A DNA stretch of 64,000 nucleotides, taken from the sequence record AP012532. The stretch is one strand, 5' to 3'. The stretch is from Stx2-converting phage Stx2a_F451. Below, one piece after another: positions 54,001 through 64,000 of this stretch; position 1 is the stretch's first letter; every line of letters starts with the position of its first letter. The position numbers are program-made.

Positions 54001-57000
54001 GCGCAGAACAAGCAGAATATCGGTACGGGCATTGGTACGGGGGCGGCTATTGGCGCATCCGTTGGTGGTCCTGTTGGTGCTGTTGCTGGAGCAGTAATTG
54101 GCGGCATTGCTGGTTCTTTGTTTTAAGGAGTGGTGAATGAGCGGATTTGCACAGGGGTTACTTGCCGGATTCAGCACCGTTGACCAGGCAATGACCCGTC
54201 GTAAGGAGCTTGGTCTGCGTGAAGCACAGCTTGCCCGGCAACAGAAAAATAACGAGCGCGATTTTGAGTTTGCGCAGTCTCAGTTTGAACATAATAAAAA
54301 CGTTGATCAGCGGAACTTTGATTACAGAGCCAAAGTTGACGACCGTAATTATGCACTGAAGGAGAGGGAGTTTAACGCTAACCAGAATTACCGGAATGCG
54401 TCACTGGGTATGGAGCAGCAGCGACTCCAGTTGCAGAAATACAACCAGCGACGGCTTGAGTATAACGATATGATTGCCCATAGCCAGCCACTAATGGAAG
54501 CGCTTGGAAAAGCAATTGAGGCTGGCGATCAGGAGGCTGCAACGCGTCTGTTCGGGCAGCTGCCAAAGGGACATCCATTAATTCTTATGTCAAACGAAGG
54601 CTATGCAGCGAAAGCGGGTCAGGCCGTGATCAACCTGCAAAAAATCTTTGGTGATAAGCCGGACATGGCGATCGATTCGCTGAATACCCCGGAAAATCTC
54701 GATGTGCTTTCCGGCGTGTTTGCCCCGGAACTACAACAGCGTATTGGCATGCCTGATTCAACCGGGGACAAAACGATAAAAGAGGCCAGGATTGGCAGTA
54801 TCGTACCAGCGCAGCAGGAAGGGTACGTACTTATTGGCCTTGATCTCACATACAGCGATGGCTCCACCGCGCATAAACCTGTAACAGAATACGGCAGTGC
54901 GCACCCTGATGATCAAACCGTGCTGGCGATACCCGTTGATAAGGCTATCGCTCAGGTCAGGGATCGCAGCAAATTTGCAGAGATATCGAAAAATTATGGT
55001 TATTTTATGCCGAAGCAGCAGGGACTTTCTCTGAAAGAGCTTCAGAAGGGGGCCAGCAACGTAGCGGCGGACGCGATCAAGAATGGCGGTAATGCTCAGG
55101 CTGCGGTGGATGAATATTATGCTGCGACTGGTTCACAACCGCATCAACAGAAAATTCAGCAACAAAAACTTCAGCAACAGGTTATCAACTGGGCGGGAGA
55201 TGATCCTGACAAGCTGTCATTTGCCAGAAATGTAGCGGCCCGTCAGCCTGAAATGCTGGAACCTCAGAATCAGAAATTGCTGGAGAACGGGTATGCGAAT
55301 TTTCTCCGTATTCAAAAGGCCAGGGGGGAACAGGCCAGAGATGAAAGTGCTTCATCTGCATCTCAGTTTATCCGTGGACTGAAACAGAATTACGCCCAGT
55401 AATTCACGATATTCCATTAATACCATTTCCTGATGCCCGGCCATTGTGCCGGGTTTTTTTATGGAGTCTGTATGGCCTATTCAGAGGAACAGCGTCCTGA
55501 GGCGCAACTCGGTAACCAGAATCGTAACAGCCTGAACATTCAGCAACCCGGCGAAACTGACAGCTATGAAGCATTTTTCTCTGATCCGAATCGCTGGAAG
55601 GATAACAGTACGTCGTTCAGCCTGGGCGATGTATTGCCAACAATGGGTAAAGGTTTCGCCCAGTCCGTCCGGGGAACAGGGGAAATGGCCCGTGGACTCG
55701 GTGATGCGATGATTCAGAGCCCGGTAAAAACAGGGGCGCGTATTTTAAATGAGTTCAGCCGTATGGGGCTGCCGGGTGTCGCAACTGTGCAGGATATTTT
55801 TGCCGGTGGCAGCAGGGGGGCTGATGAGGTCATCGATACCCTGCCTGATGGCAAAAACGCGGTTACTGATATTGTCGGTAAAGGTCTGAAGGCAACCGGT
55901 AAGGCTGTCAGTGATGGTGCCAAAGCCACTGATGAATGGCTGACCGGTAAGATGTCGCCGGGTGCAGTTCGTGCGCTGAATACGCCGATGACCGAAGGCT
56001 ATAATGATTCTGCGGTCTGGGTGGCGAAGGGTGTAAACCTGATTGGTGCGCTTGTACCTGATATGGTTGCTGGCGGTGTGGCTAGAAAGGTGGGTGATGT
56101 CACACTGCGAAAAATGCTGACCGCCGGGCTGGAGAAAAAATACATCGCGGCAGGGATGCAGCCGGAAAGAGCCACGGCACTGGCAGCAGAAGCTGTCGAT
56201 AAAAAAATGCCGGATTTATTCCAGGCGGGCCTGATCACCCATTCCACTGTAAGTGCACAGGGGCAGAGTGCAATGGCGGCAGCAGATGCTGTTCTTAATG
56301 CTGATTACTCTGAGCTGGCGCAGTCACCGAAATTTCAGCAGACGTTTTTGTCCATTGACGCCGACCCGCAGCACGCACAGCTTACTGATCGCCAGAAAAT
56401 GGATCTGGCAAAAGAGCGTGTTGCCGATGAGGTGCGCGCGCAGCTGGCAACCGATCCTGAATTGCTGGCTGTGAATGCCATGGCGGCAAAACTGGGTGAC
56501 GCACAACTGTTTAATCTGGTGACACGAGGCACAGCGAAGACCGTTAAAAGCGGCATTGTCAGAAATGCCACGGAACAGGGGGCGATTAATGCGGCGCAGG
56601 GCGGCTATTCACGCTATCAGGAAAACACGGCATTGCGTGAGACCGCCGGAATGGGTGTGTCACCGTGGGAGGGCGTGGCTGACGCAACGATCGAAGGTGC
56701 AGCCTTTGGTGCTGCGATGGGGGCTCCATTCGGTGCGGTTGCCGGATATCGTGGCAGACGTCAGGCCGCAGAAGAAACCGCCATGCGTGATGCTGAAACC
56801 GTGCAGCAGGACGACGCAGCCCCGCAACCAGAATCTGTTGATCCGGTGGCGCAGCAGCGTGAATCCATGCAGGGCATGAATCGCGAGCAGCTTCTGGAGC
56901 AGTATGCTGATGCGGATATGGCAACAGAGGGTGACGCATCCGCAGCTCATCGCCGGGAAGCTGCCAGCCAGTTGTTGAATGAACTGGACGAACAGACGAA

Positions 57001-63000: not shown

Positions 63001-64000
63001 TTACGGGTACAACGTTTTCTTCCTGCTCGGGCATACTGCTGAAGGTGTGGCGGCGGGTGACCTGACCGCTTCACGTGCTGCCGGTAATGTTGTTGGTGGT
63101 GTGCTTGGGGCATTCAGTCCTGTGGGCAGTGAAACGTCGGAAACACTGTCCGGGGCATTGCTGAAAAATGCAGCACCGACAATTCTGCGTCCGTTTGCGA
63201 ATCTTGCCATGAACGAAAACTTCATGGGGGCGCAGATTTACCAGGAGAACATGCCGTTTGGTACACCAAAACCTGACAGCCAGCTGGGAAGACGTTCAAC
63301 GCCAGAAGCGTACAAGGCGTTTGCATCCTGGCTGAATGCGTTCTCTGGTGGCAGCCAGTACCGTTCCGGTGCGGTGGATGTCACGCCGGAATCACTGAAA
63401 TACTGGATTGACTATATCTCCGGAGGGACAGGGCGCTTCATTTCCAAAACCACGGATGCGGCGGTGAAATCGCTGAACGGTATTGATATACCGGAGCAGC
63501 AGGTGCCCTTCCTGGGGAAAATTTCAGGTGAGGTGATGCCGTATGCTGACCAGCAGAAGATGTACGACCGGATGACAGAGGTTGCGCAGTATCACGCAGA
63601 GCTGAAGAGTCTGACCGGTGCAGAAAGAACGGCGTTCATTGACGAGAACAACGGAAAATTGTCGATGAACGGGCTTATGCAGGATACCCGGAAGAGACTG
63701 AAGGATTTGCGTAAACAGCGTGATGCCATTTACGCCGACAGTACTCTCAGTCTGGCGCAACAGTCGGCGATGGTGAAATCGGTTGAGCGGGATATGAAAA
63801 TTGCCGTGGATCGGTTTAACCGCGAGTACAACAAAAAAGTGGGAGTGGAGTAAAGAACATGCCCCGTACGGAAGTGCGGGGCATGCTTAACGGGGTGTGT
63901 ACATAAATGGGTACTGATATGACGATTATTTCGCCACTTTCTGTATTTAAATCAATGACTTAATACTTATATTCATTATATCCATTTAACTAAGAGGACA

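Follow-up and report, generated by a model that had tools for sequence, protein, structure and literature searches.

The Stx2-converting phage Stx2a_F451 (record AP012532; Stx, Shiga toxin) ends its morphogenesis (late) gene block with a single very long open reading frame (ORF). This gene was analysed here within a stretch of 64,000 nucleotides, referred to as the window. On balance, we favour the view that it encodes an internal, capsid-packaged and presumably ejected polyvalent protein of 933W-type podophages, in which a conserved chassis carries exchangeable cargo and a second zincin domain, here called M2, would cut the protein in cis. The protein itself is the already-described giant internal virion protein of Stx phages. 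Its class (Iyer et al. 2017), first zincin domain (Lenart et al. 2013), essentiality (Mondal et al. 2016) and location in the virion (phi24B preprint, 2026) have all been published. The present analysis adds fold support for both zincin domains, a rule for the position of M2, a chassis shared across viruses, a depletion of Cys, and a relabelling of the MuF-C domain. It also adds the second zincin domain as such, which was not matched in the sequence searches run here against Pfam, NCBIfam and the PDB and whose HExxH spacing is atypical for its family.

In the favoured reading, the chassis consists of an N-terminal module with a glycine zipper and a C-terminal module of ~900 residues. It would carry the essential functions of particle incorporation and exit, and possibly help in forming a path across the envelope. 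The cargo would comprise the N4-LPD5-CLCA_X zincin cassette and the MuF_C/PBECR RNase-fold domain, both swappable, with the CLCA_X zincin and the RNase-fold domain acting as accessory effectors against host or defence components. M2 would not be ordinary cargo, as its distance from the C-terminus stays nearly fixed, at ~940 residues, in proteins of 1,500–6,000 residues. It may act in cis after release from the capsid, cutting the polyprotein and freeing the cargo from the C-terminal module. Autoprocessing by the metallopeptidases (MPTases) of polyvalent proteins is an idea of Iyer et al. (PMC5512222). The first-pass annotation of the window had likened the gene product to the large multidomain proteins injected by podoviruses, possibly with anti-host or anti-defence domains. 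The analysis supports this description and adds packaging, an internal type of location and the polyvalent class, while ejection into the host and an anti-host or anti-defence role remain putative.

The class assignment follows from the domain content. Pfam matches above the cut-offs were obtained for LPD5 (residues 1051–1200), LPD1 (1361–1440), MuF_C (1750–1839) and LPD38 (2476–2681). All four are domains of polyvalent proteins, LPD38 being restricted to the phage type, according to Iyer et al. (2017, J Bacteriol, PMC5512222). With multiple LPD-type domains and two zincin folds in a late gene whose product is borne in the virion, the giant ORF is a phage-type polyvalent protein. It resembles the others described in that paper, which are giant, late or virion-borne multidomain proteins with LPD5, LPD1, LPD38, PBECR and more than one zincin MPTase. 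Phage 933W is unnamed in its main text, and the parts of it available mention neither a fixed position of M2 nor a chassis shared at the N- and C-termini nor a near-absence of Cys.

The evidence for a chassis comes from relatives. The modules of the giant protein were mapped onto 131 homologous giants, all selected for having M2, and positional statistics were taken from the 120 that are at least 1,500 residues long. Other relatives were found by tblastn against annotated phages with the C-terminal module alone. The C-terminal module is the best-conserved part of the protein. Its C1-C2-LPD38-C3 block was detected in 50–59 of the 131 giants, and it is 41% identical to that of Vibrio phage D53 and 27–28% to those of Bcep22 gp75, Ralstonia phages and Methanosarcina virus MetMV. 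The N-terminal module, N2, contains the glycine zipper GAAFGAAMGAPFG (residues 409–421, nt 56696–56734), in which G413 is kept in 78 of 80 copies and G417 in 77 of 80. The remaining modules are scarcer: N4, LPD5 and CLCA_X each occur in 23–27 of the 131 giants, their co-occurrence being seen in the listed architectures but uncounted, and MuF_C in only 19.

Most of the giants (102) have a single M2, while 28 have two and one has three. Measured from the N-terminus, the start of the last M2 varies with a standard deviation of 882 residues. The number of residues that follow it has a median of 943 (interquartile range 880–1,067), with 82.5% of the values between 850 and 1,250. On its other side, M2 begins within 22–35 residues of the CLCA_X cassette in 22 of 26 cases. 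The giant of Vibrio phage D53 (3,066 residues), found via the C-terminal module alone, has M2 915 residues before its end. It is 41% identical to the giant protein over 911 residues of the C-terminal module, 29% in N2 and 32% in M2; its middle differs and is methyltransferase-like. Bcep22 gp75 (4,602 residues, annotated as DarB-like) carries an M2-type domain 917 residues before its end and 22 residues before C1. A 3,002-residue protein of MetMV (record positions 5581–14589) has the same C-terminal module, at 28% identity over 835 residues, together with an M2-type HExxH domain, and the chassis thus appears to cross the divide between bacteria and archaea. In a fragmentary Salmonella enterica variant, the CLCA_X and M2 domains are separated by an inserted phosphoribosyltransferase-like segment, which shows recent exchange of cargo. 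By these comparisons, the protein is a conserved N- and C-terminal chassis flanking interchangeable enzyme cargo, with M2 at the boundary between cargo and C-terminal module.

The two candidate peptidase domains were recognised by their HExxH motifs, which the first-pass annotation had placed in different contexts more than 250 residues apart. The two peptides quoted there were recovered, GNGPGALAHEWFHSLDNYFG with HEWFH at residues 1284–1288 and TVREKLRHEIIHHAMEHVV with HEIIH at residues 1551–1555, giving a separation of 267 residues. From the composition of the protein itself 0.036 such motifs are expected, against two observed, and they are judged not to be chance occurrences because they are conserved in homologues (27 of 27 for the first, 102–103 of 103 for the second). 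The first motif lies in domain 1, where the NCBIfam CLCA_X model (NF041907) aligns to residues 1182–1437 over profile positions 3–245 of 250 (E 9e-44), scoring 149.8 bits where the curated subfamily cut-off is 260. CLCA_X is carried by phages and plasmids, forms a sister group to the CLCA zincin domain and is marked by an HExxH...D motif (Lenart et al. 2013, PLoS One). Table S2 of that paper lists residues 1195–1467 of a 2,806-residue Stx-phage protein, which is the same segment. The Asp shortly after HExxH is found here (HEWFHSLD), with H1284, E1285, H1288 and D1291 in 27 of 27 copies; H1263, W1286, E1375, R1379 and E1382 are equally invariant. Domain 1 also agrees with the phage-type MPTase clade of Iyer et al., in which strand 2 ends in a His and HExxH is followed three residues later by an Asp. 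When the domain 1 profile was searched against the sequences of PDB chains, the sole peptidase match was botulinum neurotoxin (BoNT) F, at E 0.064.

M2 could not be placed in this way. No significant match to the region was found in Pfam, NCBIfam or PDB sequences. Pfam searches with isolated segments and with 30 diverse M2 homologues returned only sub-threshold matches to Peptidase_M76, and searches of PDB chains with the whole protein and with the M2 profile gave nothing usable, M2 matching no peptidase. An exhaustive profile search with M2 recovered 975 cluster representatives, nearly all of them inside proteins of 1,000–6,000 residues. In 103 aligned homologues, H1551 is conserved in 102 and E1552, H1555 and E1607 in all 103, with G1557 and L1558 also conserved. 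E1607 lies within an (E)E-x-x-A-x-x-A-E helix, and the pattern as a whole reads as that of a gluzincin. The family consensus is R-H-E-x-x-x-H-x-G-L, with HExxxH in 94 of the 103; HExxH is limited to the giant protein and three close relatives. Distant M2 relatives in Bcep22 and the archaeal virus MetMV also read HExxH, and both spacings therefore occur in the family. The canonical HExxH of the giant protein appears to be a lineage-specific difference of one residue from HExxxH. An HExxxH set of MPTases has been described in polyvalent proteins (Iyer et al. 2017, PMC5512222), and M2 of the giant protein lacks the four residues between the His that mark this clade. A profile comparison of the two zincin domains with hhalign fell short of significance (probability 9%), and beyond the shared core no relationship between them was detected; the two are thus not recent duplicates. 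A stand-alone version of the region was also seen in Pectobacterium sp. S5, where a 489-residue protein encoded on a 631-kb contig consists of an M2 zincin (HExxxH) and MuF_C alone and is 42% identical to residues ~1490–1900.

The first-pass annotation had called both segments zincin-like, a view that a lack of metallopeptidase-like fold in structure prediction would have told against. Both lie within AlphaFold-modelled domains that match zincin metallopeptidases. In the models, an HExxH helix packs on a beta-sheet and a Glu on a later helix is the candidate third ligand, as in zincins and gluzincins. The best structural matches of both domains are anthrax lethal factor (LF) and Pro-Pro endopeptidase (PPEP), of MEROPS family M34, and MtfA-type gluzincins, which have the beta-sheet, HExxH helix and Glu-bearing helix in common with them. 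The resemblance is at fold level only, as neither domain matched M34 (Pfam ATLF) even at E values up to 10. The structural neighbours further include BoNT and neprilysin-type enzymes as well as ArdC, IrrE and CapP-type proteins. Both HExxH domains are predicted to be active Zn-dependent gluzincin-type peptidases. It is improbable that they are catalytically dead in a purely structural protein, such as an internal core, plug or tail-assembly factor. The His-Glu...His and downstream Glu of M2 are invariant in ~100 homologues that are less than 50% identical, and the His, HExxH, Asp and Glu of domain 1 in 27 of 27. Such invariance would be difficult to account for if there were neither catalysis nor metal binding, which weakens a dead scaffold as an explanation.

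The structural neighbours also raise the question of the substrate. Host-targeting toxins (anthrax LF, BoNT) and ArdC, IrrE and CapP-type regulators or antidefence proteases are among them. Both zincin domains could accordingly be injected effectors that cleave host proteins, such as restriction or defence components or proteins of the cell envelope, and not the phage polyprotein. This would suit the CLCA_X cassette, which is found in only ~20% of related giants and behaves as swappable cargo. Close relatives do swap cargo, as in the phosphoribosyltransferase insertion of the Salmonella variant and the methyltransferase-like middle of the Vibrio phage D53 protein, and a role as host effector is given as one alternative by Iyer et al. 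(PMC5512222). However, the fixed place of M2 beside the C-terminal module, despite very different cargos, would be unexpected for an effector engaged in an arms race, and the target is only putative. An effector role for both domains thus seems rather unlikely.

A third proposal concerns the cell wall. The phi24B preprint suggests that a metallopeptidase domain of the giant protein degrades the peptide cross-links of peptidoglycan to open a conduit for ejection. A wall-breaching activity is otherwise unaccounted for in the giant protein, as no wall hydrolase (lysozyme, transglycosylase or other) was detected in it, and a protein of this kind in Bcep22, the homologue, contains a lytic transglycosylase. 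The preprint nevertheless assigns this activity to MuF-C, whose fold is that of an RNase (PBECR) and which is not a peptidase. The match to MuF_C is clear (PF18819, E 1.3e-17, a score of 64 bits where 27.6 is the cut-off). The PBECR domain has a metal-independent RNase fold with a catalytic His on its N-terminal helix, plus a Ser or Thr in strand 4 (Iyer et al., PMC5512222). The corresponding residues are conserved here, H1752 in 32 of 32 copies and S1816 in 31 of 32, and the domain is accordingly a predicted RNase by the PBECR definition. The label "Muf-C metallopeptidase domain" is judged to be wrong because Iyer et al. define an RNase fold and this His and Ser are conserved; the peptidase-fold domains lie elsewhere in the protein. 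These actual zincins resemble endopeptidases of the LF, PPEP, MtfA and neprilysin types, and no wall peptidases of the M15, M23 or LAS type are among the listed structural matches. The type of fold found weakens the peptidoglycan proposal, which we regard as very unlikely. More broadly, Pfam and NCBIfam scans of the giant protein found no lysozyme, transglycosylase, methylase, helicase or AAA+ domain, and it does not belong to the virion-associated peptidoglycan hydrolases, of which it has no known type (lysozyme, transglycosylase, M15, M23 or NlpC).

The placement of the protein inside the particle rests on published work. In the preprint on phi24B (2026), mass spectrometry of purified virions detected the orthologue gp47, yet gp47 is missing from the cryo-electron microscopy reconstruction of capsid and tail, and the authors propose an ejection protein. 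The supplement of the preprint records gp47 as abundant, with 10,962 peptide-spectrum matches and an estimated ~11–35 copies per virion, and with peptides covering every module of the protein. Being abundant in the virion yet invisible in the reconstruction is as expected of an internal, ejected protein. In the same supplement, the gp47 signal is strongest in the four uppermost gel slices, which lie above the 80-kDa portal, and declines further down. The virion form is therefore mostly very large and uncut, from which it follows that any processing would come after ejection. The supplement gives protein-level counts per gel slice with peptide rows pooled, and boundaries of fragments cannot be mapped from it. 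In phage Sp5, nine morphogenesis genes are essential, among them the orthologue ORF80, whose deletion abolishes plaques while DNA-filled heads still form (Mondal et al. 2016). The AAA+ ATPase (COG1483) suggested for Sp5 ORF80 in that study was not recovered, as no AAA or P-loop family was found by Pfam or NCBIfam.

The composition of the protein is compatible with passage out of the particle. The 2,793 residues include no Cys, compared with 1.45% Cys in the other ORFs of at least 200 residues in the window (P about 2e-18). Across the 120 homologous giants, only 25 Cys were counted in 345,946 residues, and 108 of these proteins are free of Cys, as are Bcep22 gp75, the Vibrio D53 giant and Bacillus phage Page gp20. 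The 421-residue partner encoded upstream (54137–55402) and a 148-residue ORF (53419–53865) also lack Cys. We infer that this depletion fits a protein that crosses the envelope unfolded, through a narrow channel and an oxidising compartment. A hydropathy scan under strict settings (19-residue window, mean above 1.4) found no segment in the giant protein, and under relaxed settings nothing emerged beyond Gly/Ala-rich segments of weak hydrophobicity. Weaker Gly/Ala-rich hydrophobic segments lie in the C-terminal module at residues 2449–2467 and 2515–2554. The glycine zipper and these segments are possible elements of membrane contact.

Several points weigh against the favoured reading. Zincin activity, zinc binding, cleavage and ejection are, for the giant protein and its close relatives, predictions. 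The particles formed by the Sp5 ORF80 deletion do not bind tail-fibre antibody (Mondal et al. 2016), which points to a structural or assembly role that the model leaves unexplained. The positional rule is not universal, as the M2-type domain of MetMV lies 1,326 residues from the C-terminus and Bacillus phage Page gp20 has the C-terminal module but no zincin. The gel-slice ladder of gp47 may represent degradation in storage, the phi24B sample being six months old. A recurring motif at the module junctions was considered as a cleavage site. The tripeptide YSR ends three consecutive modules, CLCA_X, M2 and MuF_C (residues 1449, 1680 and 1880; nt ~59816, 60509 and 61109). The giant protein contains it four times, where 0.39 occurrences would be expected, and relatives show a 2.7-fold enrichment of [LFMIVY][FY]S[RK]. 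A YSR-type motif ends 20 of 29 CLCA_X domains, where it falls in the terminal beta-hairpin of the model, but only 17 of 161 M2 domains. YSR or [FY]S[RK] is therefore taken to be mostly structural, forming mainly the last beta-hairpin of CLCA_X, and is at most a putative cleavage site.

A broader proposal, which is possible but on present evidence doubtful, would make the M2-type zincin the position-locked release protease of a general protein-delivery chassis composed of N2, M2 and the ~900-residue C-terminal module. Such a chassis would be used by 933W-, Vibrio- and Bcep22-type podophages, with its M2-type zincin and C-terminal module recurring in an archaeal virus and its C-terminal module alone in Bacillus phage Page. 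The Cys-free polyprotein would be threaded from the capsid, and M2 would cut at the boundary of cargo and C-terminal module, freeing the effector cassettes in the new host. The change of spacing between HExxH and HExxxH would then tune the activity of M2.

Among the closest known systems are the Bcep22-type phages, which have the same morphogenesis module, with portal, capsid and head-closure proteins of JC1 homologous to those of 933W. The giant gene of Bcep22 and JC1 also ends the late block, after a gene for a virion-associated protein of ~510–530 residues, and the JC1 giant gp69 is virion-associated by mass spectrometry, as is phi24B gp47. Bcep22 gp75 shares homologous N2, M2-type zincin and C1–C3 modules with the giant protein, along with the absence of Cys. 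The cargo differs: that of the Burkholderia homologues is annotated as lytic transglycosylase, helicase and methylase, whereas the 933W protein has LPD5/CLCA_X and PBECR and no methylase or helicase match. An identity as a P1 DarB-like antirestriction protein was also rejected, there being no methylase or helicase match and only the C-terminal module matching the "DarB-like" PHROG and Bcep22 gp75. Phage N4 vRNAP and P1 DdrB/DarB are likewise injected giants packaged in the head, and N4 vRNAP and DdrB have MPTase domains according to Iyer et al. The giant protein differs from these in lacking an RNA polymerase, ParB or methylase domain. N4 vRNAP enters the head uncut, DdrB is cleaved before it is packaged, and neither settles when, or whether, the giant protein would be cut.

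The gene and its modules are listed in Table 1, with residues numbered throughout from the ATG at 55472. The first-pass annotation had described one ORF of ~8.4 kb that closes the morphogenesis block after probable internal virion proteins and that contains long low-complexity linkers. The ORF was recovered at 55472–63853 (2,793 residues), its place at the end of the block is borne out by gene order, and phi24B gp48, gp50 and gp51 are indeed virion proteins without density in the map. A linker was found at residues ~440–900, acidic and rich in Pro, Gln and Ala, and kept in just 8 of 131 relatives. The gene is 99.7% identical at nucleotide level to L0134 / ST933Wp72 of phage 933W, is kept at a minimum of 90% identity in 184 Stx-phage records, and was found in 427 of 5,426 complete E. 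coli genomes. RefSeq names its product "LPD5 (or LPD38) domain-containing protein".

An ORF scan of the window gave the longest uninterrupted frame as 55433–63853 on the plus strand, and RefSeq annotates this longer form from the ATG at 55433. The ATG at 55472 is more likely to be the true start, because a terminator-like hairpin and its T-run would fall within the first codons of the 55433 form and a GGAG lies 5 nt upstream of 55472. A start at 55472 gives 2,793 residues, which is the length published for Sp5 ORF80. A terminator placed directly upstream of so long an essential gene (8.4 kb) may limit how strongly it is expressed. Pfam searches of the four upstream ORFs of the window (52265–52666, 52685–53416, 53419–53865 and 54137–55402) found no domain. 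The genes just upstream of the giant gene in phi24B encode gp51, gp50 and gp48, which are in virions and have no cryo-electron microscopy density according to the preprint supplement. The gene upstream of the Vibrio D53 giant is homologous to the 421-residue gene. The products of the upstream genes (52265–55402) may form, together with the giant protein, a set of internal or ejected proteins.

Table 1. Coordinates in the window of the giant gene, its modules and motifs, and adjoining features.
Feature	Position (nt)	Strand	Details
Upstream partner gene	54137–55402	+	421 aa; Sp5 ORF79 (essential), phi24B gp48 (virion protein unseen in map)
Terminator-like GC hairpin plus T-run	55435–55461	+	Hairpin 55435–55454; between stop of upstream gene (55402) and ATG 55472
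Giant ORF	55472–63853	+	2,793 aa plus stop; 933W L0134 / ST933Wp72, Sp5 ORF80 (ECs1242), phi24B gp47
N-terminal module N2	55979–56791	+	aa 170–440; in 80/131 giants, Vibrio D53 giant and Bcep22 gp75
Acidic, Pro/Gln/Ala-rich low-complexity linker	56792–58168	+	aa ~441–899; conserved in 8/131 relatives
N4 region and Pfam LPD5	58169–59071	+	aa 900–1050 and 1051–1200; front of N4-LPD5-CLCA_X cassette
Zincin domain 1, CLCA_X type	59015–59836	+	aa 1182–1455; Pfam LPD1 (aa 1361–1440) is its C-terminal part
HExxH motif 1 and trailing Asp	59321–59344	+	H1284-E-W-F-H1288-S-L-D1291
Zincin domain 2, M2	59939–60511	+	aa 1490–1680; model topology beta-alpha-beta-beta-alpha(HExxH)-alpha-alpha-alpha(Glu)
HExxH motif 2	60122–60136	+	H1551-E-I-I-H1555
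E1607	60290–60292	+	Invariant in 103/103; helix after motif; candidate third zinc ligand of domain 2
MuF_C / PBECR domain	60569–61126	+	aa ~1700–1885; predicted metal-independent RNase fold
C-terminal module C1-C2-LPD38-C3	61133–63850	+	aa 1888–2793; LPD38 aa 2476–2681 (nt 62897–63514)

The giant gene makes up ~14% of the genome in the main Shiga-toxin-converting phages and is essential for infectious particles. With two intact zincin domains, an RNase fold and a zincin in a fixed place, what has been a "giant hypothetical protein" is opened to point mutation. The arrangement is relevant to the infection of new hosts by Stx phages and, more widely, to the delivery of large protein cargos by podophages.

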